Assembly: GCA_964630235.1 (NCBI GenBank)
Contig: CAZVUO010000001.1
Coordinates: 917,446-981,445 of the forward strand
Length of the DNA: 64,000 bases
From: an uncultured bacterium
GTDB taxonomy: Bacteria > Oederibacteriota > JAAXVQ01 > JAUVAV01
Reading direction: 5' to 3'
Below are positions 11,457 through 42,276 of the stretch, one piece after another. Within the stretch, counting starts at the first letter, position 1, and each line of letters opens with the position of its first letter. Made by a program: the position numbers and the translations under genes. The notes beneath the pieces are model-generated. The model saw only the letters and a list, made by a program, of their open reading frames with translations. It searched no databases and had not been told where the DNA came from.

Positions 11457-14400
11457 ATGAGCCCGGAAATCATTGTCGAACCCGCTGGCCTGACACCCCG
11501 GTTGCAGACCCTGATCGAGAACCTTGACCTTTCCCCCGAACATAAAAAGACCCTCCTGGACGCCCAAATCCGTTCCATCCGCATCAGCGCCCAGCCGGCC
11601 TTGCTCATCGTCCGCCTGGACGCCGCGCAGCTCCTGCCCGCCGACGGCCTGGAACAGCTGCGCGCCCGTCTCGGCGAGATGCTGGAAACCAGCGGCGGGA
11701 CGCAGATGGTGTGGGATGTGTACTATCCCGAGGGCGCCGTGACGCCCGCCCAATACTTGGAGGCCCACTGGCACGACCTGCTTGGCATCCTGTCCCGGCA
11801 CGTGCAAATGGCCCGCGCGTATCTGTCCCTGATCCAGGTGTCCAACGGCGAGCCCAATCGCCTGCGCCTGGCTCTGCCCAATGCCATGACCCTTTCCGCC
11901 CTGCAGCGCCAGTCCGGCGACAAAATCTTGAGCCAGCTCCTTACCGAACGCCTGAGCCGGGCCGTGAGCGTGCGCTTCGAGATCGGCCACTTCGAGGAAG
12001 AGCTCAAGCGCCGCGAGGCCCTGTACCAGAAGCGCCTGCGCGAGGAACTGGAGCGCATTCAGAACGAGAGCGCTGACGCACCCGCGGCCGGAACCGCCGC
12101 CTGCGAGGGCGGTCCGGCCTCGGCCCCCGCCCCCCTGCGCGTGCTCTTGGGACGCAAAATCGCCAGCCCGCCCCGCCCCATCGCGAGCCTCACGGAAGAA
12201 GAGGACCAGGTGGTGCTGGAGGGCGAGCTCATCACTTTCGAATGCAAGACCTTGCGCACCGGCCGCCAGCTCGCCCTCATGGACGTGTACGACAAGACCG
12301 GCACCTTGAACGCGCGCCTGTTCGTGGACGCCGGCAAAACGCTCTCCCCGGAGATCAAGGTCGGCGCCTACGTGCGGATGCGGGGCACCCTGCAGTTCGA
12401 TAAATTTTCCCGCGACCTGTGCCTGCTGGTGCGGGACGTCTCCCTCGGCGCCAAACCCGAGCGGCGGGACTGCGCCGCGGAAAAGCGGATCGAGCTCCAC
12501 GCCCACTCCCATATGAGCGCCATGGACGCCCTGGTCGGCGTGACCCAGCTGGTGGCCCGGGCCGCGGCCTTTGGCCATCCGGCCGTGGCCTTGACCGACC
12601 ACGGCGTGGTGCAGGGCTTTCCCGAAGCCATGGCCGCGGGAGAGAAACACAAGATCAAGGTCATCTACGGCATGGAAGGCTACCTGGTGGAGGACGAATG
12701 GCTCGGCATCAAACCGCCGCAGAAACCGCCCCGGCCTTACCATATCTGCCTGCTGGTGGCCGAACCCCGCGGCATTCGCAACCTCTACCATCTGGTGTCG
12801 GAAGCTCACCTCGGTCACTTTTATTACCATCCGCGCATTCCCCGGTCCTTGCTGGAGAAATACCGCGAAGGACTGCTGCTGGGCTCGGCCTGCGAGCAGG
12901 GCGAGCTCTTCCGCCGCCTGCGCGAGGGCGCCGCGGGGGAAGAACTCGAAACCATCGCCCGGCGCTACGACTATTTGGAGATCATGCCGCGCGAGAACAA
13001 CCGGTTCCTCATCCGTGAGGGCCTCGTGGCCGGCGAGGACAAGCTCCTGGCCATGAACCAGCGGATCTATGAACTGGGGAAGCGGCTGGGGCTGCCCGTG
13101 GCGGCCACGGGCGATGTGCATTTTCTCGAACCCGGGGACGAAGTGTTCCGCTCGATCCTCCACGCGGGCATGGGTTATGCGGACGCGGACCTGCAGGCGC
13201 CGCTGTATTTCAAGACCACCGAAGAGATGCTCGGGGAGTTCGCCTATCTGGGCCCTGACGGCGCGTACGACGCGGTCGTGGCCGCTCCGCGCAAAATCGC
13301 GGAGCGGATCGGCGACATCCAGCCCGTGAAGAAAAAGTTCCATCCCCCCAAACTGCCCCGGGCCGAGGAGGAGCTCAAATCCACGGCCCTGGCCAGGGCC
13401 CGCGAGGTGTACGGCGGTTCCCTGCCCGAAGAGGTGGAGAAGCGCCTCCGGCGGGAGATCACGGCCATCACCAAGAACCACTTTGCCTCGCTCTTCATGA
13501 TCGCGCGGCGCCTGGTGCAGAAATCCCTGGCGGACGGCTACCTGGTCGGCTCGCGCGGCTCCGTGGGCTCCTCTCTCACGGCCACCATGCTGGGTATCAC
13601 GGAGGTCAACCCCTTGCCCGGGCATTATCTGTGCACCGCCTGCCGGCACCATGCGTTTCCGGGAGACGGCCGCATCGGGCCCGACCTGCCGGACAAGTCC
13701 TGCCCGGCTTGCGGCCAGGTCATGGAAAAGGAGGGGTTTGACATCCCCTTCGAGGTCTTTATGGGTTTCGAGGGTGATAAACTGCCGGATATTGACCTGA
13801 ATTTTTCGGGAGAGTATCAGGCCAAGGCGCACAAGGCCCTGGAGGAAATATTCGACCGCGCGCATATTTTCCGCGCGGGCACCATTTCCACGGTGGCCGA
13901 CCGCATTGCCTACGGATTTGTCAAAAAATACCTCGAGGACAACAAACTGGTGGTGCGGGAGGCCGAGGTCAACCGGCTCACCCGCGGCTGCGCCGGCGTC
14001 AAGAAAACCACGGGCCAGCACCCGGGCGGCATCATGATCGTGCCGCAGGACATGGAAATTTATGATTTCACGCCCGTGCAGCGGCCGGCCGACGACCGCA
14101 GTTCGGAGATCGTGACCACCCACCTGGACTACCACGCCATTCACGACGCGCTGCTCAAGCTGGACCTGCTCGGCCATGACGATCCCACGTCCCTCAAGCG
14201 CCTGGGCGATCTGACCGGCGTGGACGTGCGCTCCATCCCGCTCGACGATCCGGAGACTCTGGCCATTTTTTCGGGCGTCTCCAGCCTGGGGCTCGCGGCC
14301 GAGGCCATCGGCACGCCCATCGGCACCTTGGGCATTCCGGAGTTCGGCACCGAATTTGTGCGCCAGATGCTGGAAGCCACCCGGCCCAAGCTGTTTTCCG

Positions 14401-15209
14401 AGCTGGTCCGGATCTCCGGACTCTCGCACGGAACGGATGTGTGGCTGAACAACGCCGCGGACCTGATTCGCGAGAAGACCGCCACGCTGTCCACGGTCAT
14501 CTCGGCGCGCGACGACATCATGAATTACCTGATTACCCGCGGCATGGATCCGGCCCAGGCATTCAAGATCATGGAATCCGTGCGCAAGGGCAAAGGCCTG
14601 TCGCCTGAACAGGAGCAGAGCATGCGCGATGCGGCGGTGCCGTCCTGGTACATTGACTCCTGCAAGAAGATCAAGTACATCTTTCCCAAAGCCCACGCCG
14701 TGGCCTACTGCCTGATGGCCTTCCGCATCGCGTATTTCAAGGTACACCATCCCACGGCTTTCTACGCCAACTACTTCACCCTGAACGCGGAGTTCTTCGA
14801 CGCCCAGCTGGTGGCGCGCAGCGGCGCGCAGAAAGTGGCCGAGCGGATCCAGGAACTGCGCGGCCTGCAGGACGCCACGGCCAAGGACAAGCACACCCTG
14901 ACCGTGCTGGAAGTGGCGCGTGAGGCGTTCGCCCGCGGCCTGCGCTTCAAACCCGTGTCGCTGATGGAGTCGGACCCGGCGAAGTTCCTGATTGTGGCCG
15001 AAGGCGTACTGCTCCCGCCCCTGGTTTCACTCTCGGGCCTGGGCGCGACCTGCGCCCAGCGCATCGTGGAGGAACGGTCCAAAACCTCATTCCGCTCCAT
15101 CGAGGATCTCTCGCGCCGCACGGGCGCCAACAAGAACGTGGTCGAGATCCTCATCCAGCACGGCTGCCTCGGCATCCTCCCCAAGACCGACCAGACCACC
15201 CTGTTTTAA
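11457..15209 (+). CDS. polC: PolC-type DNA polymerase III alpha subunit, apparently lacking the 3'-5' exonuclease insertion
   Basis: N-terminal domain, then an OB fold, then a PHP domain (IELHAHSHMS). PolC-specific GSRGSVGSSLTATMLGITEVNPLP and the CxxC...CxxC zinc module. C-terminal tandem HhH. 1250 aa, with no FDxETTG exonuclease motif between the PHP halves. Confidence 0.85.
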   Translation: MSPEIIVEPAGLTPRLQTLIENLDLSPEHKKTLLDAQIRSIRISAQPALLIVRLDAAQLLPADGLEQLRARLGEMLETSGGTQMVWDVYYPEGAVTPAQYLEAHWHDLLGILSRHVQMARAYLSLIQVSNGEPNRLRLALPNAMTLSALQRQSGDKILSQLLTERLSRAVSVRFEIGHFEEELKRREALYQKRLREELERIQNESADAPAAGTAACEGGPASAPAPLRVLLGRKIASPPRPIASLTEEEDQVVLEGELITFECKTLRTGRQLALMDVYDKTGTLNARLFVDAGKTLSPEIKVGAYVRMRGTLQFDKFSRDLCLLVRDVSLGAKPERRDCAAEKRIELHAHSHMSAMDALVGVTQLVARAAAFGHPAVALTDHGVVQGFPEAMAAGEKHKIKVIYGMEGYLVEDEWLGIKPPQKPPRPYHICLLVAEPRGIRNLYHLVSEAHLGHFYYHPRIPRSLLEKYREGLLLGSACEQGELFRRLREGAAGEELETIARRYDYLEIMPRENNRFLIREGLVAGEDKLLAMNQRIYELGKRLGLPVAATGDVHFLEPGDEVFRSILHAGMGYADADLQAPLYFKTTEEMLGEFAYLGPDGAYDAVVAAPRKIAERIGDIQPVKKKFHPPKLPRAEEELKSTALARAREVYGGSLPEEVEKRLRREITAITKNHFASLFMIARRLVQKSLADGYLVGSRGSVGSSLTATMLGITEVNPLPGHYLCTACRHHAFPGDGRIGPDLPDKSCPACGQVMEKEGFDIPFEVFMGFEGDKLPDIDLNFSGEYQAKAHKALEEIFDRAHIFRAGTISTVADRIAYGFVKKYLEDNKLVVREAEVNRLTRGCAGVKKTTGQHPGGIMIVPQDMEIYDFTPVQRPADDRSSEIVTTHLDYHAIHDALLKLDLLGHDDPTSLKRLGDLTGVDVRSIPLDDPETLAIFSGVSSLGLAAEAIGTPIGTLGIPEFGTEFVRQMLEATRPKLFSELVRISGLSHGTDVWLNNAADLIREKTATLSTVISARDDIMNYLITRGMDPAQAFKIMESVRKGKGLSPEQEQSMRDAAVPSWYIDSCKKIKYIFPKAHAVAYCLMAFRIAYFKVHHPTAFYANYFTLNAEFFDAQLVARSGAQKVAERIQELRGLQDATAKDKHTLTVLEVAREAFARGLRFKPVSLMESDPAKFLIVAEGVLLPPLVSLSGLGATCAQRIVEERSKTSFRSIEDLSRRTGANKNVVEILIQHGCLGILPKTDQTTLF

Positions 15210-16874: not shown

Positions 16875-16903
16875 TTGACATTTGTGGACAAAAGGATCAA
16901 AAT
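16875..16903 (+). promoter_or_regulatory. Putative sigma-70 promoter for the regulator/Ehr-like operon (TTGACA-N17-CAAAAT)
   Basis: Perfect -35 about 50 nt upstream of the regulator ATG, in the divergent region with murB. Confidence 0.35.
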
Positions 16904-16953: not shown

Positions 16954-17655
16954 ATGGAATTATCCGTCAGGGAAGTCGCCAAACTCCTGAAAGTATCCGA
17001 AAAGACGGTCTACCGGTGGATTGCGGAAAAAAAATTGCCGGCCTTCCGCATCCACGACCAGTACCGGTTCAACCGGGTGGAATTGCTGGAGTGGGCCACG
17101 ACCCGCCGCTTGAACGTTTCCCCGGAAATCTTCGCCGAACCTTCCTCTGAAGCGCCCTTGCCCAGCCTGGCCGAGGCCCTGCAGGCCGGCGGCGTTTATT
17201 ACCGCATCGCCGGCCAAACCCGCGATGAAGTCCTGGCCGCCGTGGTCGAGCACATGCGCCTGCCTGATGCGGTGGACCGGAAGTTCCTGCTGCAAGTGCT
17301 GCAGGCGCGCGAGGAACTGGGCTCCACGGCCATCGGCGAGGGCATCGCCATTCCGCACGTCCGCAATCCCGTGGTCCTGCACGTGGGGCAGCCGACCATC
17401 ACCCTCAGTTTCCTGGAAACGCCGGTGCCGTTCGGCGCGCTGGACGGCCAGCCCGTGCGGGCCCTGTTCACGCTGATCAGTCCCACGGTCCGCGCCCACC
17501 TGCACATGCTGTCGCGCTTGGGGTTCGCGCTGCGCGACCCGGAGCTCAAGCGGCTGGTGCGGGAGCAAAGCCTGCGCGAGAAAATCTTCTCCGCCGTGTC
17601 GGCCGTGGAACAGGCGTTGACCGAGGCCGAATCCAGGGAGGGAAGCGGTTCATGA
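16954..17655 (+). CDS. Transcriptional regulator: N-terminal excisionase/MerR-like HTH fused to a PTS EIIA(Ntr)/fructose-type domain
   Basis: AKLLKVSEKTVYRWI helix-turn-helix. C-terminal GSTAIGEGIAIPH signature with the phosphorylatable His. Stop overlaps the start of the next gene (ATGA). Confidence 0.75.
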   Translation: MELSVREVAKLLKVSEKTVYRWIAEKKLPAFRIHDQYRFNRVELLEWATTRRLNVSPEIFAEPSSEAPLPSLAEALQAGGVYYRIAGQTRDEVLAAVVEHMRLPDAVDRKFLLQVLQAREELGSTAIGEGIAIPHVRNPVVLHVGQPTITLSFLETPVPFGALDGQPVRALFTLISPTVRAHLHMLSRLGFALRDPELKRLVREQSLREKIFSAVSAVEQALTEAESREGSGS

Positions 17656-19634
17656 TCGCCGCCGGATTCGCCTTATCCCTGGGATTGCTGCTCGCGGGCG
17701 GGCTTCTGGCCTGGATGTGTTCCGGCCGTCCGGCCCTGGCCGCCATCCTGGGCAGCGCCAGCGCTTGCGCGGCCGGCGGGATCGGCTTGGCCGCGTCGCT
17801 GGCGGCCCTGCATCCGGGGAACGCCTTCAGCCTCAACTGGCCGTGGGTCATGCCCAACGCATCCTTGTCCCTGGGCGTGGATCCCCTGGCGGCGTTTTTC
17901 CTGGCAGCGCTATTCGCGGTTTCCGGCTGTGCGGCGCTCTTTGGCTGGGGGTATTTGCGGCAGGACCACGAACCAGCCCGGCAGGGCGGCCACTGGTTTT
18001 TCTTCAACCTGCTGGTGGCGAGCATGGCCGTGGTCCTGCTGGCGCGCAACGCCCTGCTGTTCCTCGTGGCCTGGGAAGTCATGACCGTGTCTTCGTATTT
18101 CTTGGTGGTGCACGATCACGAGGAAGAACGCGTCCGCAGGGCGGGATGGATTTACCTGACCGCGTCCCATATCGGCGTGCTGTTCCTTTTGGGCTTTTTC
18201 GCGCTGGCCGGCCAGCAGGCCGGCGGTTTCGAATTTTCCCGCCTCCAGAGCGCGCTCCCGGATTCCGCCGGTTGGCTGTTTTTACTCGCCTTGGCCGGCT
18301 TCGGGTTGAAGGCGGGATTCGTGCCCCTGCACGTGTGGCTGCCCGAGGCGCATCCGGCCGCGCCGAGCCACGTATCGGCGCTCCTGTCGGGCGTGATGAT
18401 CAAGCTCGGCATCTACGGCCTGTTCCGGGTCCTGACTTTTTTTGCCGAGCCGGCCGCATGGTGGGGAGGGCTCATGGTCGGCATCGGCCTGCTTTCCGGC
18501 GTTTGCGGGGTGGCTTTCGCCCTGGCGCAGCACGACCTCAAACGCCTGCTGGCCTACCACAGCGTGGAGAACATCGGCATTATCGCGCTGGGCCTGGGCC
18601 TGGCCCTGATCGGGCGCAGGCTGAACCTACCCGCGCTGGCCGCGCTCGGGGCCTTGGGCGCGCTGCTGCACGTTTGGAACCATGCATTGTTCAAAGCCCT
18701 GCTCTTTCTCGGCGCGGGCGCCGTGGTGCGTCAGACCGGACTGCGCAGCGTGGATGCCGCGGGCGGCCTGTTGAAACGCATGCCCGCCACCGGCGCGGCG
18801 TTTTTTGTGGGCGCGGCTGCCATCTGCGGCTTGCCGCCGTTCAACGGCCTGGTGAGCGAATGGCTGATCTATACGGCCGGATTCACGGGCCTGACGCAGG
18901 CGCCGGCAGCCTGGGCGCCTGCGGCCATCGCCACGGTGGCCGGCTTGGCCGCGATTGGCGGCCTGGCGCTCGCCTGCTTCGCCAAGGTTTTCGGCGCGGT
19001 CTTTCTCGGCGAACCGCGCACACCGGAGGCCGCGGCCGCCACTGAAGCCCATTGGACCCTGCTCGCGCCCATGCTCGCGCTGGCCGCCATCTGCCTGGCC
19101 ATCGGTCTGGCCGGGCCTTGGCTGTGCCTGGCTCTGAGGCCGGCCGTCTTGTCCATCCTGGGCGTCGAGGCCGCCCTCGGCGCCGGGGCCGTGGCTGTGG
19201 CCGCCGGCTGGATGCTGCGCCTGACCGGGGTCATGCTGATCCTGCTGGCCGCGACCGCGCTGATCATCTGGCTGCGGAACCGCAGACTGCGGAAGCCCGT
19301 TGCTTCCGGGCCGACGTGGGATTGCGGCTTCGCGGACCCTTCGCCCCGCATGCAGTATACGGCCGCGTCCTTCAGCCAGCCCCTGACCCGCTCCCTGGGA
19401 CTCTTGCTCAGGCCGCAAACGCAAGCCCAGCTTCCAGCCGGGCTGTTTCCCGGCCCGGCCCATTGGCGCTCCCATGTGTCCGACTTGTTCCAGCGGCTTC
19501 TGCTGGAGCCGTTGTTCCGCGGCGCGGCGGCCGGGTTGTCGTGGCTGCGCTGGCTGCAGCACGGCCGGATCCAGCTCTACGTCCTCTACATCGCCGCGGC
19601 GCTGATTCTGCTCGCCCTCTGGGGGTGGCTGTGA
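17652..19634 (+). CDS. Antiporter-like membrane subunit (NuoL/MrpA/HyfB family) of an energy-converting hydrogenase-related (Ehr-like) complex
   Basis: 660 aa, many TM helices, WLPEAHPAAPSHVSALLSGVMIKLG motif typical of the NuoL/HyfB family. Confidence 0.8.
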   Translation: MIAAGFALSLGLLLAGGLLAWMCSGRPALAAILGSASACAAGGIGLAASLAALHPGNAFSLNWPWVMPNASLSLGVDPLAAFFLAALFAVSGCAALFGWGYLRQDHEPARQGGHWFFFNLLVASMAVVLLARNALLFLVAWEVMTVSSYFLVVHDHEEERVRRAGWIYLTASHIGVLFLLGFFALAGQQAGGFEFSRLQSALPDSAGWLFLLALAGFGLKAGFVPLHVWLPEAHPAAPSHVSALLSGVMIKLGIYGLFRVLTFFAEPAAWWGGLMVGIGLLSGVCGVAFALAQHDLKRLLAYHSVENIGIIALGLGLALIGRRLNLPALAALGALGALLHVWNHALFKALLFLGAGAVVRQTGLRSVDAAGGLLKRMPATGAAFFVGAAAICGLPPFNGLVSEWLIYTAGFTGLTQAPAAWAPAAIATVAGLAAIGGLALACFAKVFGAVFLGEPRTPEAAAATEAHWTLLAPMLALAAICLAIGLAGPWLCLALRPAVLSILGVEAALGAGAVAVAAGWMLRLTGVMLILLAATALIIWLRNRRLRKPVASGPTWDCGFADPSPRMQYTAASFSQPLTRSLGLLLRPQTQAQLPAGLFPGPAHWRSHVSDLFQRLLLEPLFRGAAAGLSWLRWLQHGRIQLYVLYIAAALILLALWGWL

Positions 19635-20533
19635 TGGACCTCGCGAGCCTTCTGCTTTGGCTGGCCGCGCTGCTGCTCTCGCCACTGTGGCTGGGCCTGA
19701 TCGAGCGCGTCAAAGCGTTCTTCGCCGGCCGCCGGGGGGCGCCCCTGCTGCAGGTTTATTATGACCTGGCAAAACTCTGGGGCAAGCAGGCGGTGTACAG
19801 CCGCACGGCCACCTGGGTTTTGCGTTCCGCGCCGGCCTGGAGCCTGGCCGCGATCCTGGCAGCCACCCTGTTCGTTCCGTGGGGCGGCTGGCCGGCCCTG
19901 GCGGTTTTTCCCGGAGACATGATCGTCTTGTTCTACCTGCTGGCCCTGGCCCGCTTTGGGCTGGTGCTGGGCGCCCTGGACACGGGGTCCGCGTTCGCGG
20001 GCATGGGCGCCAGCCGCGAAGTCTGGCTCTCCGCCCTGGCCGAGCCCGTGCTGTTCCTGGGGCTGGCGGTGCTGGCGCTCCAGCACAGGCAGTGGAGCCT
20101 GACCGCGTTGCTGGGAGGCCCGGCCGGCTGGCCGGACCTCGCGGTGTGGCTGGTGGCCCTGGCGTGGGCCGTGGTGCTGGTCGTGGAAAACGCGCGCCTG
20201 CCGGTGGATGATCCGAACACGCATCTGGAACTGACCATGATCCATGAGGCCATGATTTTGGACCATAGCGGGCCGGACCTGGCGCTGGTCACGGCCGGGA
20301 GCGCCGTGAAATTTTCCATCTTCTCCGCGCTCTTGGCCGGGTTGTTCGTGCCCCAGGGGCTGGAGCCGGGCTGGCTCAAGCTCGCGGCCGCAGGGGCCGG
20401 CATGGCGGTGGCCGCCGTGGCCGTGGGGGTGACCGAGTCGGTTTTGGCCCGCTGGCGTCTGGTCAGCCTGCCGCGCCTGCTCGCGGGCGCAGCCGCTCTG
20501 GCCGTGATCGCCCTGTTGTGGGTGATGCGATGA
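19634..20533 (+). CDS. NuoH/HycD/HyfC-like membrane subunit of the Ehr-like complex
   Basis: About 299 aa polytopic protein, with HycD-like length and pattern. TGATG overlap with the upstream gene. Confidence 0.7.
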   Translation: MDLASLLLWLAALLLSPLWLGLIERVKAFFAGRRGAPLLQVYYDLAKLWGKQAVYSRTATWVLRSAPAWSLAAILAATLFVPWGGWPALAVFPGDMIVLFYLLALARFGLVLGALDTGSAFAGMGASREVWLSALAEPVLFLGLAVLALQHRQWSLTALLGGPAGWPDLAVWLVALAWAVVLVVENARLPVDDPNTHLELTMIHEAMILDHSGPDLALVTAGSAVKFSIFSALLAGLFVPQGLEPGWLKLAAAGAGMAVAAVAVGVTESVLARWRLVSLPRLLAGAAALAVIALLWVMR

Positions 20534-21219
20534 ACCTGCAACCGGATTTCATGAACGTCCTGTCGGTTTTGCTGATCCTGTGCACCCTCGCGCTGTTCGG
20601 CGCCAGCCGCCTGTCCTATTGCATCCGGGTGGCCGCGGTCCAGGGGTTTGTGCTGGGCCTGCTGCCGGTTTTCACCAGCGCGGCCGGTATGCACCCCTCG
20701 GCCTGGGTCATGTCCGGATTGGCGATAGCCCTCAAGGCGTTCGTCTTTCCCTGGCTGCTGCTGCGGGCCTTGCGCCAGGCGAATATCCGGCATGAGATCG
20801 AACCCAGCGTGGGATTCAGCTGGTCGATCTGGATCGGCATCCTGCTGCTCGCGGTCTGCGTGCTGGCCGGCCGGGGCATGGCTTCCTGGCCAGGCGCGCC
20901 CGAGGGCCTGCAGTTGCCGGCCTCCTTCTTTATGGTGCTGGCCGGATTTTTTCTGATCGCGGCCCGGCGCCAGGCCCTGACCCAGGCGGTCGGCTACCTG
21001 GTCCTCGAGAACGGCGTGTTTGTCTTCGGCAGCCTGCTGGTGCCCGAAGCGCCGCGCCTGCTGGAGTTGGCGGTGCTCCTCGACCTGTTGGCCGCGGTCT
21101 TCATCATGGGCATCGCCATCTTTCACATTCACCGGGAATTCGACCACATTGACACCAACCGGCTGAACTTTTTGCGCGATTGGCACCGGAAAGAACCCCT
21201 GCGGGAGCCGCGGCCATGA
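20530..21219 (+). CDS. HyfE-like small membrane subunit of the Ehr-like complex
   Basis: 229 aa, about 6 TM helices. ATGA overlaps on both sides. Confidence 0.6.
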   Translation: MNLQPDFMNVLSVLLILCTLALFGASRLSYCIRVAAVQGFVLGLLPVFTSAAGMHPSAWVMSGLAIALKAFVFPWLLLRALRQANIRHEIEPSVGFSWSIWIGILLLAVCVLAGRGMASWPGAPEGLQLPASFFMVLAGFFLIAARRQALTQAVGYLVLENGVFVFGSLLVPEAPRLLELAVLLDLLAAVFIMGIAIFHIHREFDHIDTNRLNFLRDWHRKEPLREPRP

Positions 21220-22655
21220 TCCTCGTCCTCGCGCTTTTGCCTCCCCTGGCCGGCGCGGCGGCCCTGCTGCTGCGCGGCCCCCGCCTGATCCGGGGCTGGC
21301 TGGTGACGGCCGCGCTCGGGCACTTTCTGCTGACCGTGGCCGCGCTGGCCGGCGCGCCAGCGCCTGCCTGGCACGGCTGGCTGGAACTGGACGCGGCCGG
21401 CAAGATTTTTTTAGGCACCACCAGCCTGTTGTTCCTGGTGGTCAGCGTGTATACGCTCGATTTCCTCCGGAGAGAAAAGCGGACGGACGCCGAGGACCGG
21501 CCCTACCCGGAGTCGGTGTTCGTGGCCTGCCTCCTGTTTTTCCTCGGCGCCATTACCTGGGTGATCCTGAGCCAGCACCTGGTCCTGCTGTGGGCGGCGG
21601 TCGAAGCCACCACGCTCTCTTCCGCGCCGCTCATTTATTTCCATCGCAACGACCGTTCCCTGGAAGCCACCTGGAAATACCTGCTCCTGTGTTCGGTCGG
21701 AATCGCCCTGGCCCTGCTCGGCACGTATTTTCTGGCCATGGCCGCGGGCGGCAGCGGCGCGGGGCTCACGCTGCGGGAACTGGCCCAGCCCGGCCAGGCC
21801 CTGCGCACGCCCTGGCTGAAAGGCGCGTGGATTTTGCTGCTGGTGGGATACGGCACCAAGATGGGCCTGGCGCCCATGCATTCCTGGCTGCCGGACGCGC
21901 ACAGCGAAGCTCCCTCGCCGGTTTCGGCCCTGCTCTCCGGCGCGCTGCTCAACGGTGCGTTCCTCGGCATCGCGCGCGTGCTCTCCGTGTGCGCGGCCTC
22001 CGGGCAGGGCGACTTTGCCCGGCAGACGCTGATCGCCCTGGGCTTGTTTTCCATGCTGGTGGCCGCGGTGTTTATCCTGGGCCAGACGGACTTCAAACGC
22101 ATGCTGGCGTTCTCTTCGGTGGAGCACATGGGCGTCCTGGCGCTCGGCTTGGGCATCGGCGGGGCGGGCGTTTACGCCTCGCTGCTGCACGCGGTCAATC
22201 ACTCCCTGGCCAAGGCCATGCTGTTTCTGCTGGCCGGCAACCTGCTGGCCGCCTTCGCGACCAAAACCATCACCGCGGTGCGGGGAGCGGGCCGCCTGCT
22301 GCCTGTCACCGGGGCCCTGTGGCTGGCAGGCTTCTTCGCCATCTCCGGCATCCCACCCTTCGGATTGTTCTGGAGCGAATGGCTGATGCTCAGGGCGGCG
22401 CTGTGGAGCGGGGCGTGGCTGGCGGGCGTGCTCTATCTGCTGTTCTTGCTGGTGGTGGTGATCGGCATGGCCTCCATCGTGGTGCGCATGGTGCAAGGCG
22501 AACTGCCGCCCGAACGGAAGCCGCTGATCGAGCGCAGCCTGGCTGTCCTTCCGCCTGCCGTACTTGCGCTCTGCGCGCTGCTGCTCGGCCTGTACCTGCC
22601 CGCGTTCCTGCGTTCGGCGCTGGAACAGGCCGCGGCCTTGTTGGGAGGCGGTTAG
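21216..22655 (+). CDS. NuoN/NuoM/HyfF-like antiporter subunit of the Ehr-like complex
   Basis: 479 aa. GTKMGLAPMHSWLPDAHSEAPSPVSALLSGALL motif. Confidence 0.75.
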   Translation: MILVLALLPPLAGAAALLLRGPRLIRGWLVTAALGHFLLTVAALAGAPAPAWHGWLELDAAGKIFLGTTSLLFLVVSVYTLDFLRREKRTDAEDRPYPESVFVACLLFFLGAITWVILSQHLVLLWAAVEATTLSSAPLIYFHRNDRSLEATWKYLLLCSVGIALALLGTYFLAMAAGGSGAGLTLRELAQPGQALRTPWLKGAWILLLVGYGTKMGLAPMHSWLPDAHSEAPSPVSALLSGALLNGAFLGIARVLSVCAASGQGDFARQTLIALGLFSMLVAAVFILGQTDFKRMLAFSSVEHMGVLALGLGIGGAGVYASLLHAVNHSLAKAMLFLLAGNLLAAFATKTITAVRGAGRLLPVTGALWLAGFFAISGIPPFGLFWSEWLMLRAALWSGAWLAGVLYLLFLLVVVIGMASIVVRMVQGELPPERKPLIERSLAVLPPAVLALCALLLGLYLPAFLRSALEQAAALLGGG

Positions 22656-24116
22656 ATGACTCCCGGGGTCCGCACCCGCAATCAGGAGGCCGTGAGCCTG
22701 AACGAGATTCCCAACCTGGACGCCGGGGCGTTTCGCGCCGCGGTGCTGGCAGCCGTGTCCAGGGGGAGCCGCTTGTCCGCCTGGTTCGCGGGGCCTGCCA
22801 TTGGGGCCGCGCGCAGGCTGTACGCGATCTTGGCCGATGACCACAGCGGCACGCTAACCTGGCTGAGCACCGGGATGGAAGATGAATGGCCAAGCCTCAC
22901 GCCGGACTGTCCCCAGGCGCACGCGTTTGAGCGGGAACTGGCGGAAGACGCGGGGCTGCATCCACAGGGGCATCCCTGGCGCAAGCCCCTCAGGCGCCTC
23001 CGCGACCACGGGGAATTCTTCCGCGTCCTCGGCGAGGAAATTCACGAGGTCGCCGTGGGGCCGGTGCACGCGGGCGTGATCGAACCCGGCCATTTCCGCT
23101 TCCAGTGCGCTGGCGAAAAAGTATTGCACCTGGAAATCGCCCTTGGATACCAGCACCGCGGCGTGGAGCAGGCGCTGCCCCAGGCCGCGCCCAGGTCGGC
23201 CATGGCCATCATCGAAACCGCGGCCGGCGATACCAGCATCGGGCATGCCCTGGCCCATGTCGGCGCGCTCGAAGCACTGTCCGCGGCCCACGTGCCGCCG
23301 CGCGGCCTGGCCGTGCGCGCCCTGGCCCTGGAACTGGAGCGCCTGGCCAACCATGCGGGCGACCTGGGCGCCCTGGCCCAGGACGTGGGCTATCTGCCCA
23401 CCGCGTCCCACTGCGGCCGCCTGCGCGGAGACCTGCTGAACCTCACGGCCGAGCTCTGCGGCAGCCGCTTCGGCCGCGGCCTGGTCCAACCCGGCGGCGC
23501 GGCTTTTGACCTGGAGCCGGAACGGGCGGCCCGCCTGGAAAACAAGCTGGTTGCCATTCTCGCGGAACTGCATTTGGCCCTGGACCTGACGTGGAACTCG
23601 CCCTCCGTGCTGGCGCGCTGGGAGCAAACCGGCCGGCTCCCGCGCAAAACCGCGCTGGACCTGGGCGTGGTGGGACCGGCGGCCCGGGCCTGCGGATTGG
23701 CTCGCGACGTCAGGCAGGATTTCGCCTCGGGCATGTACGCGCTGGCGCATATCCCCATCGCCCTGGCGCACGGCGGGGACGTTTTTTCCCGGGCCCTGGT
23801 ACGCTGGATCGAAATTCAGCGCTCGGCTGCGTTCGTGCTGGAACAGCTGGGGTCCCTGCCCGCGGGCCCGGTCCGGGACGGAATGCCGGACCTCAAGCCC
23901 CGGCTGGCCGCGGCCGCGCTGGTCGAAGGCTGGCGAGGCGAGATCTGCCACGTGGCCATGACCGGCGACGACGGCCGGCTGGCCGCGTATAAGATCGTGG
24001 ACCCGTCGTTCCACAATTGGCAGGCGTTGGCCCAGGTCATGCGCAACGGGGAGATCAGCGATTTTCCGCTGTGCAATAAAAGCTTCAACCTGTCCTACTG
24101 TGGACATGATCTATAG
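22656..24116 (+). CDS. NuoC-NuoD/HycE-like large subunit lacking all NiFe-ligating cysteines (Ehr large subunit)
   Basis: NuoC-like N-terminal part (AFERELAEDAGLHPQGHPWRKPLRR). The core GPVHAGVIEPGHFRF...LGYQHRGVEQ is hydrogenase-like. Position L1 reads ETAAGDTSIGH where a hydrogenase has ERICGICSxxH. Position L2 reads IVDPSFHNW where a hydrogenase has DPCxxCxxR. The C-terminal tail is NuoD-like (SYCGHDL). Confidence 0.8.
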   Translation: MTPGVRTRNQEAVSLNEIPNLDAGAFRAAVLAAVSRGSRLSAWFAGPAIGAARRLYAILADDHSGTLTWLSTGMEDEWPSLTPDCPQAHAFERELAEDAGLHPQGHPWRKPLRRLRDHGEFFRVLGEEIHEVAVGPVHAGVIEPGHFRFQCAGEKVLHLEIALGYQHRGVEQALPQAAPRSAMAIIETAAGDTSIGHALAHVGALEALSAAHVPPRGLAVRALALELERLANHAGDLGALAQDVGYLPTASHCGRLRGDLLNLTAELCGSRFGRGLVQPGGAAFDLEPERAARLENKLVAILAELHLALDLTWNSPSVLARWEQTGRLPRKTALDLGVVGPAARACGLARDVRQDFASGMYALAHIPIALAHGGDVFSRALVRWIEIQRSAAFVLEQLGSLPAGPVRDGMPDLKPRLAAAALVEGWRGEICHVAMTGDDGRLAAYKIVDPSFHNWQALAQVMRNGEISDFPLCNKSFNLSYCGHDL

Positions 24117-24231
24117 GCCTGCGTTTCCAGCTTCCTGATCCTTGCCGTAAACCCGGCAGACAGGGTCCGGAAGCTTCCCCCTGCGGCCCAAGAGGGGCAA
24201 GGGGAGTGGGGCACCAAACAGGAGTCACCGT

Positions 24232-24981
24232 ATGCTGAAAGCCTTGCTGGCCCGGCTGAAGACCGGATGCCGAACCCAACCTTTTCCACCCGGGTCCGCG
24301 GCGGTTTCCGACCGCTTCCGAGGCAGGCCCGAGCTATGCGCGGGCACCGGACCCGCGGACCCCGGCGCCTGCCCGACTGCCGCGTTCAGCCGGCAGGACG
24401 GGGGCTTGAACCTGGACCTGGGCCGCTGTTTGTTCTGCGGGTCCTGCCCATTTAGCCAGCCTGCGGGTCCGCTGGCGTTCAGCCGGGATTACCGGCTGGC
24501 TGCTTCCACGCGCGGAGACTTGAACCTGCGGCTCGGCGCCGAGTTCCATCCCGCCCGGCCGCTGGGCGAGAACCTGCGCCGTTTGCTGGGCCGCGCCTTG
24601 CGCCTGCGCCAGGTCAGCGCCGGCGGCTGCAACGCCTGCGAAGCCGACGCCAATGTGCTGACCACGGTCGGGTTCGACTTGGGGCGTTTCGGCATCCAAT
24701 TCGTGGCTTCGCCCAGGCACGCGGACGGGCTGCTGGTCACCGGGCCGGTCACGCTCAACATGCGGCTGGCCCTGGAAAAGACCTATGCCGCGGTGCCGGA
24801 GCCCAAGCTGGTCATCGCCTCCGGCGCGTGCGCCATTTCCGGCGGGCCGTATGCGGGGCAGAAGCAGGTCCTGAACGGCGTGGACCGGCTCCTGCCCGTG
24901 GACCTGTACGTGCCCGGCTGTCCGCCGCATCCCTTGACCCTGTTGGACGGCCTGTTGCGCCTGCTGGGCAGGATCCGCTGA
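24232..24981 (+). CDS. NuoB/HycG-like small subunit with an N-terminal ferredoxin-like (HycF-remnant) extension
   Basis: GGCNACE...ASGACAISGG...VPGCPP cluster-N2-type motifs. The N-terminal 60 aa carry CP(TAAF) and CLFCGSCP, enough for one additional [4Fe-4S] cluster. AGGAG RBS. Confidence 0.8.
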   Translation: MLKALLARLKTGCRTQPFPPGSAAVSDRFRGRPELCAGTGPADPGACPTAAFSRQDGGLNLDLGRCLFCGSCPFSQPAGPLAFSRDYRLAASTRGDLNLRLGAEFHPARPLGENLRRLLGRALRLRQVSAGGCNACEADANVLTTVGFDLGRFGIQFVASPRHADGLLVTGPVTLNMRLALEKTYAAVPEPKLVIASGACAISGGPYAGQKQVLNGVDRLLPVDLYVPGCPPHPLTLLDGLLRLLGRIR

Positions 24982-36456: not shown

Positions 36457-38178
36457 TTATTTCCGCTTGAACAGCTTGCGCAGTTCGGTAACGGACCGTG
36501 TGTTGAGCACGTCCGCCGGCTCCAGCCACCCGCGCCGCGCCTGATTGATCCCGTAGCGCAGGGTGCGCAGGCCGACCGGGCTGTGCGCGTCCGAGGAAAC
36601 AGCCACCCGCACGCCTGCTTCCTTGGCCTGGCGGCAGGCCGTGTCCGTGGCGTCCAGACGCTCGGGATGGGAGTTGAGCTCGAGAAAACAGCCGCGTTCC
36701 TTCGCGCCGGCGATCACGCGTTCCAGCTCCAGCGGGTAGGGGGGGCGGGAGTTCAGCAGGCGGCCGGTGGGGTGGCCGAGAATGCTGAAATAGGGATTGT
36801 CCATGGCGCGCAGAATGCGCTCGGTTTGCTTGCCCGCGGGCAGGTTAAATTTGTAGTGGATGGACCCCACGGCGTAATCCAGGCGCGCCAGCACCTCATC
36901 CGGCATATCCAGCCGGCCGTCCTCCAAAATGTCGGCTTCCAGTCCTTTTAGCAGCGTGAAATTCTTAAGCCGCGCGTTGGCCGCGTCAATGGCGTCGAGC
37001 TGTTTGAGCAGGCGTTTGGCGTCCAGGCCGTGGGCCACGGTCACATGCTGGGAATGGTCGGTAATGCCCAGGTACGCATAACCGAGGGCGCGGGCGGCCT
37101 CGGCCATTTCCAGCAGGCCGGCTGTGCCGTCCGATTCCTCGGTATGGCAGTGGAGGTCTCCGCGCAGGTCCGGCAGGCTTACCAGGCGCGGCAGGAGCCC
37201 CTGGGCCGCCCGCTCCAGTTCGTCCCCCGCTTCCCGCAGTTCGGGCTCGATGTAAGCCAGGCCGAGGCGGCGGTAGATTTCCTCCTCGGTTTTGCCTGCC
37301 ACGGACCGTGTTCCCTTGAACAGCCCATACTCATTGAGTTTGTAGCGCTTTTTTTGCGCCAGCTTGCGCACCGCGATGTTATGCGCCTGAGAGCCGGTGA
37401 AATAGTGCAGGGCCGCGCCGAAACTCTCCTGCGGCACGGCGCGCACGTCCACCTGCAGGTCCGAGCGCAAAACGACCGTGGCGCGGGTCGGACCCAAGGC
37501 CTGCACGCGCGCGATGTCCGGGTAGCGGCTGAAAAATTCCAGGGTCTTGTCAGGCAGGCGGCTGGCGACCAGGATATCCACATCGCCGATGGTTTCCTTG
37601 CGGCGGCGGAAGCTGCCGGCCGCGGCCGTGGACTCCACGCCCGGGGCGGCCCGCAAATAGACCAGGAGCGCTTCCACGGCCGGCTCGGCGCTGGCCCACA
37701 GCGTGCGCTCGGGATTGGCCATGCGGTGCGCGGCGCCGGACAGGATCTGCTCCTCCAGCTTGGGGCCGAAGCCGGGGAGCGCCCGCACCTTGCCGGCTTG
37801 GGCCGCGCGTTTAAGGTCGTCCAGCGTTCGCGGACGCAGGCTCGCGGCCAGCTGTCTGACCCGCTTGGGTCCCAGCCCCGGCAGTTTCAGCATCGCGAGC
37901 TGCACAGGCGGGATCTTGGCCTCCAGCTCCGAAAGCATTGTCAGCGCACCGGTGGCCAGGAGTTCCTGGATCTTTTCGGCCAGGTCCGGGCCGATGCCCG
38001 GCAGACCGGTCAGGCCGTTCTTGCGGGCGGCGAGTTCGGACAGGCTGCGGGGCAGGTTGGCAATGGTTTGGGCCGCAGTATGATACGCGCGGATGCGGAA
38101 GGGATTGGCGCCTTCCAGCTCCAGCAATACGGCCACCCGCTCGAAGCGTTCCGCGATTTCCTGGTTTGTGAGGGGCAT
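36457..38178 (-). CDS. polX: DNA polymerase X family protein with a C-terminal PHP (3'-5' exonuclease/phosphoesterase) domain
   Basis: HhH motifs (GLPGIGPDLAEKI) and a Pol beta-like nucleotidyltransferase (GSFRRRKETIGDVDIL). PHP with HCHTEESDG. Confidence 0.88.
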   Translation of the reverse strand: MPLTNQEIAERFERVAVLLELEGANPFRIRAYHTAAQTIANLPRSLSELAARKNGLTGLPGIGPDLAEKIQELLATGALTMLSELEAKIPPVQLAMLKLPGLGPKRVRQLAASLRPRTLDDLKRAAQAGKVRALPGFGPKLEEQILSGAAHRMANPERTLWASAEPAVEALLVYLRAAPGVESTAAAGSFRRRKETIGDVDILVASRLPDKTLEFFSRYPDIARVQALGPTRATVVLRSDLQVDVRAVPQESFGAALHYFTGSQAHNIAVRKLAQKKRYKLNEYGLFKGTRSVAGKTEEEIYRRLGLAYIEPELREAGDELERAAQGLLPRLVSLPDLRGDLHCHTEESDGTAGLLEMAEAARALGYAYLGITDHSQHVTVAHGLDAKRLLKQLDAIDAANARLKNFTLLKGLEADILEDGRLDMPDEVLARLDYAVGSIHYKFNLPAGKQTERILRAMDNPYFSILGHPTGRLLNSRPPYPLELERVIAGAKERGCFLELNSHPERLDATDTACRQAKEAGVRVAVSSDAHSPVGLRTLRYGINQARRGWLEPADVLNTRSVTELRKLFKRK

Positions 38179-38506: not shown

Positions 38507-39964
38507 ATGAAGACTTCCGCCGAACCCCCGAAACTCGAACCCCTTGCCCCAAACCTGTGGCGCATTCCCCGGGACCAGCATCCCGGCATGCGCGTGGACG
38601 GCCTGGTCTTCGCTTCTTCCGAACTGCTTCAAGACGTGTTCCGTGACCAGGCGCTCAGCCAGGTCATCAACGTGGCCCATTTGCCCGGCATCGTCAACGC
38701 TTCCTTGGCCATGCCGGACATCCACTGGGGATACGGTTTTCCCATCGGCGGCGTGGCGGCCTTTGACGCGGAGACCGGCGTGGTCTCGCCCGGCGGGGTG
38801 GGATATGACATCAACTGCGGCGTGCGCCTGCTCGCCTCCTCGCTGGAGCAGGATGAAGTGGCGCCCAAGGTAAAGGACCTGCTCGCCGTCCTTTACCGGA
38901 ACGTGCCGGCTGGCGTGGGCAGCGAAGGCCGGATCACGCTCAAGCCCGCGGAGCTCAAGCGCGTGCTGGAGCTGGGGTCGCGCTGGGCGGTCCAGCAGGG
39001 CTACGGCTGGCAGGAGGACCTCGCGCGCACGGAAAACGAGGGGCGCCTGGCGGCGGACAGCGAGCTGCTCAGCGCCAGGGCCAGGGAACGCGGCCTGGGA
39101 CAGCTGGGCACGCTCGGGTCAGGCAACCATTTTTTGGAAGTCCAGGCTGTGGACGAGATCTTCGACCAGGCAGGGGCCGAAGCCTACGGCTTGCGCACGG
39201 GGCAGGTGACGGTCATGATCCACTGCGGTTCGCGCGGCCTTGGGTATCAGGTGTGCGAGGATTTCCTGGCGGTCCTGCGGCGCGCCACGCGCACGTATGG
39301 TTTCGATTTACCTGACCCCCAGCTGGCCTGCGCGCCGGTCAGCTCGCCAGAGGGGCGGGAATATTTGGCGGCCATGGCCGCGGCCGCGAATTACGCCTGG
39401 GCCAACCGCCAGTGCATCACCCACTGGGTGCGGGAGGCTTTTCAGGAAGTGCTGGGGAAGCCGGCCGAACGGTTGGGCCTGCACCTGGTGTACGACGTGG
39501 CGCACAACATCGCCAAACTGGAAACGCACCGCGTGAAGGGAAAAGAACGGCTCGTGTGCGTGCACCGCAAGGGCGCGACCCGCGCGTTTCCGGCCGGGCA
39601 TCCCGAGGTGACCGCGCGCTACCGCCGGGTCGGCCAGCCGGTGCTCATTCCCGGCAGCATGGGCACGGCTTCTTACGTCTGCGCGGGCGCGGCCGGAGCC
39701 ATGGAACAGAGCTTCGGCTCCACGGCGCACGGCGCGGGCCGCGTGCTCTCGCGCCACGCGGCCATCCGGCAGGCCCAGGGCCGCTCCATCGGACAGGAGC
39801 TGGCTGCCCAGGGCATCCAGGTCATGGCCCGGGGCCGGGAGACTTTGGCCGAAGAGGCGCCGGCCGCGTACAAGGACATTGACGAGGTGGTGGCGACCGT
39901 GGATGAGGTTGGGCTGTCTAAAAAAGTCGCCCGGTTGAGGCCGTTGGGGGTCGTAAAAGGCTGA
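38507..39964 (+). CDS. rtcB: RNA-splicing ligase RtcB
   Basis: IHWGYGFPIGGV, YDINCGVR and GSGNHF motifs. Confidence 0.92.
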   Translation: MKTSAEPPKLEPLAPNLWRIPRDQHPGMRVDGLVFASSELLQDVFRDQALSQVINVAHLPGIVNASLAMPDIHWGYGFPIGGVAAFDAETGVVSPGGVGYDINCGVRLLASSLEQDEVAPKVKDLLAVLYRNVPAGVGSEGRITLKPAELKRVLELGSRWAVQQGYGWQEDLARTENEGRLAADSELLSARARERGLGQLGTLGSGNHFLEVQAVDEIFDQAGAEAYGLRTGQVTVMIHCGSRGLGYQVCEDFLAVLRRATRTYGFDLPDPQLACAPVSSPEGREYLAAMAAAANYAWANRQCITHWVREAFQEVLGKPAERLGLHLVYDVAHNIAKLETHRVKGKERLVCVHRKGATRAFPAGHPEVTARYRRVGQPVLIPGSMGTASYVCAGAAGAMEQSFGSTAHGAGRVLSRHAAIRQAQGRSIGQELAAQGIQVMARGRETLAEEAPAAYKDIDEVVATVDEVGLSKKVARLRPLGVVKG

Positions 39965-39983
39965 ATGTACCCCTGTCCCCACA

Positions 39984-40019
39984 CCCCTCTTTGCTAAAGA
40001 GGGGCAGGGGGAGATTACT
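39984..40019 (+). repeat. Hairpin repeat module (CCCCTCTTTgctaAAGAGGGGCAGGGGGAGATTACT)
   Basis: Perfect 9-bp stem. The same module is found at 59878-59913 (reverse) and, diverged, at 40053-40088, 59806-59840 and inside R copies B and D. Confidence 0.6.
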
Positions 40020-40121
40020 TATCATCCGTCCAGTCGGCAGTTGAGGTTTATGAGTAATCCCCCTTCGCCCCCTTTAGAAAAGGGGGCAGTCAACAGCAAG
40101 TGGGGAATAAAAGGTATACAC

Positions 40122-40535
40122 ATGATTCCTTTTGAGATCCTAGAGCATACGGCGGACGTGGGGCTTAGGGTCCAGGGCCGGACGCTGGAGGAACTGTTCG
40201 AGAACGCGGCCCAGGGCCTGTACGCGCTGGCCTTGGCGGCGCCTCCGGCCGGGGCGGTGACCGAGAAGGTCACTCTGCACCTGGCCGCTGACGGCCCGGA
40301 ATCCCTGCTGGTCGCGTTCCTGGAGGAACTGGTATTCCGCCTCTACAGCCGGTGCCAGATGGCGATCAGCGCGCGCCTGTCCTTTCCCACGCCCAATCGC
40401 TTGAGTGCCGAGGCGGCGTTCGTTCCCGTCGCGGCCGAATCCTATGCGGTGGAAGTGAAAAGCCCCACGTACCACCGGCTGAAGATCGAGCAGGGGCCTG
40501 AAGCCTGGCTCGCGGAGGTCTATTTTGACCTGTGA
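40122..40535 (+). CDS. Archease (RtcB activator)
   Basis: MIPFEILEHTADVGLRV N-terminus. Confidence 0.85.
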   Translation: MIPFEILEHTADVGLRVQGRTLEELFENAAQGLYALALAAPPAGAVTEKVTLHLAADGPESLLVAFLEELVFRLYSRCQMAISARLSFPTPNRLSAEAAFVPVAAESYAVEVKSPTYHRLKIEQGPEAWLAEVYFDL

Positions 40536-40556
40536 GGGCGGGGAGAACTGAACGTC

Positions 40557-40991: not shown

Positions 40992-41116
40992 CGGACCGGA
41001 CAGGGCCGAGGTTCTGCGCGGCATGGCGAAGGGTCCGTGGCAGGTGTGGTGATTGACCAGCGGGATTTCGGTTTCGTGTAGACAAACGCTTTTAATGCTG
41101 TTGCGGAGGAAAAATC

Positions 41117-41908: not shown

Positions 41909-42064
41909 TATAGGTCTTGAATTAATCGGTGCGATTTATTTTAGCGGAACAGAAAAGTGGTTTCGATTTGCTGCGCGGGTTTCATCCCCGGTTGTACAGT
42001 GATGGTATTCACTTGACAGTGTCCGCGAATGGCCTATCATTGTAAGGAGTAGGTTTTTACTTCT

Positions 42065-42181: not shown

Positions 42182-42276
42182 CGGACGGGATTTCCGTGGC
42201 AGGATTATTTACCTGCGATATCAGGTGAATACTATCACTACACATGCCGGTAGCAGCGGTATTTCCGAGGGGTCGC

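Follow-up and report, generated by a model that had tools for sequence, protein, structure and literature searches.

In a 64,000-nucleotide stretch of DNA from an uncultured bacterium of the Oederibacteriota (NCBI GenBank assembly GCA_964630235.1, contig CAZVUO010000001.1, positions 917,446 to 981,445 of the forward strand; this whole stretch is called the window below), the open reading frame (ORF) at 22656-24116 very probably encodes EhrL, the large subunit of an Ehr complex, which is most likely a redox-coupled ion translocator and looks like an offshoot of the Hyf-type hydrogenases. Ehr stands for energy-converting (or Ech-) hydrogenase-related complex, a name given in Geobacter. Published descriptions define it as a group of relatives of the group 4 hydrogenases whose large subunit lacks the Ni/Fe-binding cysteines, with Mrp-like antiporter subunits encoded alongside and a function that is unknown (PMC6349859, PMC10284858, PMC10432482, PMC4378227, PMC7304191). 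The genes at 17652-24981 agree with this description. Their products are predicted to form a complex of six subunits, with EhrA, EhrB, EhrC and EhrD in the membrane and EhrL and EhrS peripheral; EhrL is homologous to the group 4 large subunits and to NuoD, NuoB-, NuoH- and HyfE-like subunits and Mrp/NuoL-type subunits are encoded beside it, and the cysteines of the motifs RxCGxCxxxH and DPCxxCxxH/R are absent from it. A first-pass annotation of the window had noticed a large subunit without its metal ligands and had interpreted it as an evolutionary intermediate between group 4 hydrogenases and the complex I subunit NuoD. Both the observation and the interpretation have already been published under the name Ehr, and no new kind of system is present here.

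The gene, and the regions of its product that carry the argument, are as follows, in coordinates of the window.

22656..24116, forward strand: ehrL, 486 residues, a NuoC-like domain fused to a NuoD/HycE-like domain.
22656..23000, forward strand: NuoC/HycE-N-terminal-like domain of EhrL, residues 1-115, from profile alignment and the structural model.
23058..23102, forward strand: beta1-beta2 loop of EhrL, GPVHAGVIEPGHFRF, with H138, E143 (equivalent to HycE E193, the proton donor) and H146.
23214..23246, forward strand: L1 equivalent, ETAAGDTSIGH, with A190 and T193 in place of Cys and with G191 at the position of Nqo4 Tyr87.
23925..23951, forward strand: EGWRGEICH, with the canopy Arg R427 (equivalent to HycE R478) followed by the family-specific C431.
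23994..24020, forward strand: IVDPSFHNW, a superfamily-conserved motif upstream of L2, placed by alignment.
24081..24113, forward strand: true L2 equivalent and C-terminus, SFNLSYCGHDL, with N478 in place of Asp and S480 and G483 in place of Cys.

The reading frame is open throughout and translates to 486 residues. Against Pfam, EhrL matches Complex1_49kDa (PF00346, 2.7e-32), with NiFeSe_Hases and Complex1_30kDa sub-threshold; the last of these is sub-threshold in EhrL itself, yet recorded for many of its relatives. The NCBIfam matches are to NuoD-type models (NuoD at 2e-45), all of them far under the equivalog cut-offs. Searched as a single sequence against the sequences of the PDB, EhrL finds E. 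coli HycE as its top match (7z0s_E, E=1.3e-43). A family profile built from 20 sequences also finds HycE (2.8e-63, 217 bits), with lower scores for Nqo4 of T. thermophilus (161 bits) and for MbhL and MbsL of P. furiosus (159 and 91 bits), and aligns residues 1-115 to the N-terminal domain of HycE as well as to the NuoC portions of NuoCD from Aquifex and E. coli. An AlphaFold 2 (AF2) model, made from a 20-sequence alignment, has a mean predicted local distance difference test score (pLDDT) of 66, with 80-94 in the N-terminal domain. We used it for Foldseek ranking only, in which HycE comes first, followed by the NuoCD fusions of E. coli and Aquifex, with both domains covered. The NuoC-NuoD fusion proposed in the first-pass annotation is borne out, in the sense of HycE, by Pfam, by the profile alignment and by the Foldseek ranking.

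For the motifs that hold the metal in a hydrogenase, we aligned EhrL and 240 relatives (241 family members in all) with E. coli HycE, HyfG and NuoCD. The L1 motif had been located correctly in the first-pass annotation: ETAAGDTSIGH aligns with HycE DRVCGICGFAH, so that C241 becomes A190 and C244 becomes T193, with the Gly and His of the motif retained as claimed. The L2 motif had been misplaced. IVDPSFHNW, which had been taken for it, pairs with RAATYANW of HycE and RTPSFAHL of NuoCD about 30 residues before L2, and its Asp-Pro, counted among the retained hydrogenase residues, is coincidental. The terminal SFNLSYCGHDL, which had been described as a NuoD-like tail, is the actual L2 equivalent; it aligns with HycE SLDPCYSCTDR, so that D529 becomes N478, C531 becomes S480 and C534 becomes G483. 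C482 is an off-register Cys between these two old ligand positions. The final residue of EhrL aligns with that of NuoCD and with HycE R537, where HycI cleaves, and EhrL therefore has no processed C-terminal extension; this part of the description of the tail stands. With L2 corrected, the replacement of all four NiFe ligands also stands, as A190, T193, S480 and G483. Across the family these positions are Ala in 99%, Thr in 97%, Ser in 100% and Gly in 100%, and Cys in none. Because all four are Ala, Thr, Ser or Gly, EhrL cannot carry a [NiFe] centre.

The former metal pocket has been remodelled in a uniform manner. The residues of EhrL at ligand and canopy positions are small or polar (A190, G191, D192, T193, N232, G235, D236, S480 and G483), and the canopy Asp, elsewhere strictly conserved in the superfamily, is Asn (N478) in 99% of the family. 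Six near-invariant cysteines are family-specific: C151 and C268 (100%), C482 (99%), C253 and C431 (98%) and C473 (95%). In the alignment none of them occurs in HycE, HyfG or NuoCD. Two relatives, P0077 and P0118, lack both C473 and C482. To judge from the alignment, the remodelled motifs ETxAGDT..GH and FPLCNKSFNLSYCGHDL are under strong purifying selection. Checking the quinone-pocket His and Tyr, to which the first-pass annotation had pointed, found no equivalents in EhrL of the complex I pair His38/Tyr87 that binds the quinone head group in NuoD/Nqo4. Nqo4 H38 aligns with I142/E143 of EhrL and Nqo4 Y87 with the invariant G191; the same two residues are H95 and Y144 in NDUFS2, and the equivalence of the Glu and His positions follows PMC9474812.

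The residues that move protons in a hydrogenase are kept. H138, E143, H146, H197, H233, R344, E386, R427 and D485 of EhrL are each conserved in 100% of the 241 sequences; the roles of the proton-path residues, of the beta1-beta2 Glu and of the canopy residues are those given in PMC9474812. In EhrA, the Cys of the TWDCG loop in the C-terminal ND3-like region aligns with HycC C537, and the alignment shows E142, K220, K251, H340, H344, K348 and E403 retained. EhrD retains E142, K227, H337, H341, K345 and E400, and its N258 matches HyfF N263, in a numbering that counts from a TTG start at 21180 (491 residues); 12 is to be subtracted for the 479-residue protein of the gene caller. Together these give both subunits the set of Glu in transmembrane helix (TM) 5, Lys in TM7, Lys in TM8, His/Lys in TM11 and Glu/Lys in TM12, with each residue as in HyfB and HyfF. 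The antiporter charges of an ion pump and its ND3-like, beta1-beta2 and ND1 coupling loops are all present in the sequence, and the energy-converting machinery beyond the NiFe site is predicted to be intact.

The electron path is likewise represented. EhrS joins a HycF/HyfH/NuoI-like domain (residues 1-100, 24232-24531) to a NuoB/HycG-like domain (residues 126-249). The ferredoxin domain has one complete [4Fe-4S] ligand set, made up of the 'CP' cysteine of motif 1 (C47) and the three cysteines of motif 2 (C66, C69 and C72), while the ligands of the other cluster are lost; in 70 sequences these four cysteines are conserved at 90%, 97%, 90% and 89%, respectively. We take the retained cluster to be the one that lies beside the proximal cluster, following the usual wiring of 2x[4Fe-4S] ferredoxins. 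The ferredoxin-like remnant has also kept its N-terminal amphipathic helix and an orphan conserved cysteine, C36 (90%). All four proximal-cluster cysteines (C133, C136, C200 and C230) are present and are 94-97% conserved in the same 70 sequences; the motif GGCNACE has the hydrogenase CxxC spacing, aligns there with HycG without gaps, and is not the CC of complex I. EhrS has two [4Fe-4S] ligand sets and keeps the electron wire.

EhrL belongs to a large and widespread family. More than 8000 protein clusters match it, which is a lower bound. The 120 matches listed are 55-86% identical to EhrL, apart from P0001 (100%), which is EhrL itself, and the nearest named relative among them is from a metagenome-assembled genome (MAG) of candidate division FCPU426, at 74% identity. 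At least 24 independent public contigs encode a protein identical to EhrL. With one genome per species, at least 600 stretches from many phyla contain a confirmed EhrL relative, and our locus comparisons cover 80 of these. The 80 loci include Verrucomicrobiota, Planctomycetota, Thermoanaerobaculia, Gemmatimonadota, Spirochaetota, Elusimicrobiota, Omnitrophota, Chlamydiota, Fibrobacterota and Geobacterales (Geomonas limicola, Geobacter, Pelobacter), and the gene order ehrA-B-C-D-L-S is kept across them; EhrL relatives occur in NC10 as well. A search seeded with a Geobacter locus found proteins of G. pickeringii, G. grbiciae and other Geobacter. The orthologues in Geobacter, Geomonas and Pelobacter are 51-53% identical to EhrL, with the same motifs and gene order, and the names of the Geobacter relatives in databases vary ('hydrogenase large subunit', 'NADH-quinone oxidoreductase subunit C', 'CO-induced hydrogenase'). 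Coppi 2005 is reportedly the source for the Ehr of Geobacter sulfurreducens (GSU0739-45). Those genes are annotated as EhrA, EhrC, EhrL, EhrS and so on, and their role 'has never been investigated', although the subunits were more abundant in formate-grown cells (PMC7894505). Ehr has also been reported from comammox Nitrospira and other groups.

The remaining features of the operon are listed here.

16875..16903, forward strand: candidate promoter of sigma-70-like type, TTGACA-17-CAAAAT, in the AT-rich gap before the operon.
16954..17655, forward strand: first gene of the operon, encoding a 233-residue protein with HTH_17 and phosphotransferase system (PTS) EIIA(Ntr)-type domains and the phospho-His motif GIAIPH (His135); called the HTH-EIIA gene below.
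17652..19634, forward strand: ehrA, HyfB/NuoL-like antiporter-type subunit, 660 residues, with a C-terminal ND3-like extension and TWDCG loop.
19631..20533, forward strand: ehrB, HyfC/HycD/NuoH-like membrane anchor, about 300 residues (Pfam NADHdh 2.6e-29; alignment with HyfC, HycD and NuoH).
20530..21219, forward strand: ehrC, HyfE-like, with a NuoK-like C-terminal half (NF008556, hydrogenase 4 membrane subunit, 8.8e-25; alignment).
21216..22655, forward strand: ehrD, HyfF/NuoN-like antiporter-type subunit, 479 residues (NF005044, hydrogenase 4 subunit F, 3e-102).
24232..24981, forward strand: ehrS, small subunit, 249 residues, a HyfH remnant fused to a NuoB/HyfI domain.

The best NCBIfam match of ehrA is NF005086, hydrogenase 4 subunit B, at 597 bits, where the cut-off of the model is 667 bits. 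The ehrL gene is the fifth of six structural genes, whose order, ehrA-B-C-D-L-S, is that of hyf. The genes from HTH-EIIA to ehrD overlap at each junction by ATGA or GTGATG (ATGA between the HTH-EIIA gene and ehrA), ehrD and ehrL abut, and the ehr genes are, by this layout, translationally coupled. The spacer between ehrL and ehrS (24117-24231) is 115 nt long, compared with about 10-25 nt in most related loci; as a candidate structured RNA it folds no better than shuffled sequence (z = -1.5, not significant). The promoter candidate is a consensus match only, and four such sites occur in the region against 0.6 expected. The 64-kb window contains no match to Rfam families, no tRNAs, and no homologues of HycI, HypA, HypB, hyp, hycB or hyfA. 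Some other loci (L025, L045, L049, L017, L018 and others), including those of Geobacter and Geomonas, have two EhrA-like genes upstream of ehrB, which agrees with the Geobacter name 'EhrA-1'; a subset of these loci has the HTH-EIIA gene and one copy of ehrA on the opposite strand, in divergent orientation.

When the ORFs surrounding the 80 loci were clustered all against all, no partner oxidoreductase (FdhA, NuoEFG or HycB/HyfA) emerged as conserved. The six ehr genes and the HTH-EIIA gene formed recurrent clusters; all other recurrent ones consisted of ORFs that overlap the operon in antisense or in an alternative frame, and these we took as spurious. Of the 51 Ehr loci that could be evaluated, 42, from different phyla, have a homologue of the HTH-EIIA gene, and in 29 it lies directly upstream. 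The adjacent copies are 29-65% identical (median 55%), and 50 of 52 retain the phospho-His. The HTH_17 domain is N-terminal and excisionase/MerR-like, and the other domain is EIIA-2/PtsN-like. We found no mention of this gene in the Ehr papers cited here. Judging by its neighbourhood, it seems to belong to the Ehr cassette as a conserved seventh gene, and its domains suggest that Ehr may be controlled by a PTS(Ntr)-type phosphorelay.

Ehr is most likely a redox-coupled ion translocator that acts on a substrate other than H2. In the mechanism we propose, a soluble low-potential donor, most likely ferredoxin, would feed electrons to the two EhrS clusters, from which they would pass into the former NiFe pocket, now lined by A190, G191, D192, T193, N232, G235, D236, N478, S480, C482 and G483. 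There a substrate other than H+/H2 would be reduced, or oxidised if the complex runs in the reverse direction, and the conserved loops would link this reaction to the translocation of H+/Na+ by EhrA and EhrD. The simplest reading of the sequences is that the acceptor would be neither H+ nor a canonically bound quinone. Several points weigh against this reading. In the literature we found neither structure nor biochemistry reported for any Ehr complex, and the donor, the acceptor, the direction and the translocated ion are therefore all inferred. The pocket 'cavity' is deduced from residue sizes alone, and pLDDT of the AF2 model falls below 50 at the pocket, in residues 114-166, 188-192 and 453-486, at the beta1-beta2 loop, L1 and the C-terminus. 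Finally, orthology with GSU0739-45 is shown only through other genomes of Geobacter and Geobacteraceae.

It is possible, although we consider it doubtful, that Ehr is a ferredoxin:(mena)quinone oxidoreductase whose remodelled pocket accommodates the head group of a quinone, in the manner of complex I, NDH-1 and Fpo. All other NiFe-less members of the superfamily except MBS offer the analogy, Ehr has the NuoH-like subunit and every coupling loop, and many of the host phyla have a respiratory lifestyle. The pocket itself argues otherwise. The positions of Nqo4 His38 and Tyr87 are occupied by I142/E143 and G191, what stands at the former ligand and canopy positions is for the most part a small polar residue, and the CC pair of complex I is missing from the small subunit. 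Furthermore, Ehr-bearing Riflemargulisbacteria are reported to lack quinone biosynthesis, although their Ehr may be another subclade.

A second alternative concerns descent rather than function, and was the interpretation offered in the first-pass annotation: that EhrL is an intermediate on the way from group 4 hydrogenase large subunits to NuoD of complex I. The same hypothesis, in which Ehr is the 'missing link' to complex I, was published by Marreiros et al. 2013, as related in PMC4758237, which itself disputes that thesis and favours Ech-type precursors of NuoD. The characters of EhrL are mixed. Like NuoD, it lacks the four cysteines and stops at the same C-terminal end point, and its N232/H233 matches NDUFS2 N185/H186; other characters, the HycE-type fusion among them, are those of hydrogenases. 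The family profile scores 217 bits against HycE but 161 against Nqo4. Gene order and subunit set are of hyf type, with HyfB, HyfC, HyfE and HyfF as best NCBIfam matches. The insertion of about 27 residues in NuoCD is absent, the beta1-beta2 loop is of hydrogenase length with Glu rather than His, the canopy residue is Arg rather than Lys (both PMC9474812), and the small subunit has CxxC rather than CC (PMC7684303). The quinone His and Tyr are missing, with an invariant Gly at the Tyr position, and EhrL has derived invariants of its own, N478 and the six cysteines. In published trees Ehr forms a subclade that falls within group 4 or beside it, close to 4f. We therefore regard an intermediate as unlikely. 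Instead, EhrL looks like a specialised offshoot of the Hyf/FHL-2-type group 4 hydrogenases, and we rank this placement, which draws on bit scores, indels and published trees, above that of a NuoD intermediate because the protein is closer to HycE than to Nqo4, because of its own derived invariants, and because of those trees. The facts behind the first-pass interpretation remain (a HycE-like fusion with a hydrogenase core, no [NiFe] and no extension), but the evidence as a whole favours an offshoot over a way-station to NuoD.

The preferred reading, of a redox-coupled ion translocator, can be taken further, to a proposal that we think improbable as a whole: that the NiFe pocket has become a new catalytic site, and that Ehr is a ferredoxin-driven ion-pumping reductase for a non-proton, non-quinone substrate under HTH-EIIA control. 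Such a site may be built from the six cysteines (with C482 in the old L2 and C431 beside the canopy Arg), D192, T193, N478 and S480. The two-cluster wire would feed it and the hydrogenase proton path would be kept; the substrate would be, for example, a disulfide, a persulfide or another small polar molecule; and expression would be under a dedicated PTS(Ntr)-type HTH-EIIA regulator.

Another alternative, which we consider quite improbable, is that the six cysteines would lie beside the proximal cluster and there carry out thiol/disulfide or sulfane-sulfur chemistry, or hold a new metal or cluster, as in MBS or in ferredoxin:thioredoxin reductase. Their conservation (C151 and C268 at 100%, C253, C431 and C482 at 98-99%, C473 at 95%) and their absence from HycE, HyfG and NuoCD speak for a role, as does the location of C482 between both former L2 ligand positions, and MBS sets a precedent in the superfamily for Fe-S-based sulfur reduction without NiFe. 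EhrS, however, unlike MBS, has four proximal-cluster cysteines at hydrogenase spacing, P0077 and P0118 do without C473 and C482, and the cysteines that remain in the MBS large subunit proved dispensable.

It is very unlikely that Ehr is a decayed hydrogenase whose peripheral arm is a redox-inactive relic, leaving a complex that is idle or has no activity beyond that of an Mrp-like cation/proton antiporter. In favour of this, no catalytic metal site is left, the conserved neighbourhood has no partner oxidoreductase, and hyp and hycI were not found in the window. But the Fe-S ligands, pocket motifs and proton-path residues are very strongly conserved, this conservation spans at least 600 species-level genomes from many phyla, and Ehr subunits are expressed and regulated in Geobacter (PMC7894505). 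That a frameshift or sequencing error hides the cysteines, the objection foreseen in the first-pass annotation, can hardly be believed and is refuted by an uninterrupted ORF, an identical protein on at least 24 independent contigs, and the same replacements in the 241 relatives.

Of the complex I superfamily members that still lack a known function, Ehr is one of the most widespread. A redox wire and proton/ion machinery under strong selection, an invariantly remodelled pocket and the absence of the canonical quinone ligands sharpen the experiments that could be designed. The six cysteines, the canopy change from Asp to Asn, the one-cluster ferredoxin domain and the HTH-EIIA gene are family signatures that serve as leads to its function, and the substrate of Ehr, once found, would add one more to the few reactions that power ion pumps of the complex I type.

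The operon is flanked by genes that we take, by similarity, to be housekeeping genes for PolC, MurB, NusA and IF-2. The one at 11457-15209 on the forward strand presumably encodes, by similarity, a PolC-type DNA polymerase III alpha subunit. A polymerase of this type would be unusual in a non-Firmicute genome of 65% GC, and would fit a deep-branching candidate phylum (the nearest relative being the FCPU426 MAG). A PolX-family polymerase with a PHP domain is encoded at 36457-38178 on the reverse strand. At about 40000-44000 of the window the GC content dips from about 0.65 to 0.52-0.56. The genes at 38507-41908 encode RtcB (38507-39964), archease (40041-40535) and an FkbM-type methyltransferase (41117-41908), followed by ORFs without a Pfam match. 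This region may have been acquired, and is unrelated to the Ehr finding.

Among known systems, MBS (Mbx) of P. furiosus resembles Ehr in that it is derived from a hydrogenase, has abandoned H2 chemistry, and has kept the Fe-S wire and the ion-translocating arm. The two differ in detail. MbsL retains two of the four cysteines and MBS has a three-Cys proximal cluster, through a shortened loop, whereas EhrL retains none and EhrS has all four proximal cysteines at hydrogenase spacing (PMC7684303); neither MBS signature is found in EhrL and EhrS. MBS has an Mrp-type architecture of 13 subunits, and the profile score of EhrL to MbsL is much lower, at 91 bits.

With the Q-module of complex I, EhrL shares the fold, the loss of the four hydrogenase cysteines, the C-terminal end point, and the match of N232/H233 to NDUFS2 N185/H186, and the antiporter-like subunits have the same charged residues. 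Unlike complex I, EhrL has no equivalents of the quinone His38/Tyr87, and its canopy residue is Arg instead of Lys (PMC9474812). It has no NuoCD insertion of about 27 residues, and its small subunit has CxxC instead of the tandem CC (PMC7684303). NuoE, NuoF and NuoG are lacking, and Ehr has no separate NuoA, NuoJ or NuoI; rather than the separate NuoA/J/K/I of complex I, the subunit set is Hyf-like.

Similarity to hydrogenases 4 and 3 of E. coli (Hyf, FHL-2; Hyc, FHL-1) is greater. These complexes have the NuoC-NuoD fusion large subunit and the gene order B-C-E-F-G-(H)I, the CxxC of the small subunit (as CxxC...C...C in group 4 hydrogenases and in EhrS), the beta1-beta2 Glu, the canopy Arg, and an ND3-like loop on the C-terminus of HyfB/HycC. 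What Ehr lacks in comparison are the four Cys ligands in the CxxC of L1 and of L2, the C-terminal extension, and HycI and the hyp genes (both within the 64-kb window), and its canopy Asp has become Asn. HyfA/HycB, HyfD and formate dehydrogenase genes are absent from the window and from the conserved neighbourhood, and what is left of HyfH is a domain with one cluster that forms part of the small subunit.

The closest counterpart is the Ehr of Geobacter sulfurreducens, which has the same subunit set and a large subunit that also lacks the L1 and L2 cysteines. The locus in the window comes from an uncultured lineage and has a single EhrA, where some Geobacter loci have two, and its EhrL has a shorter NuoC-NuoD linker than relatives of 507 residues. 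No defining feature differs.

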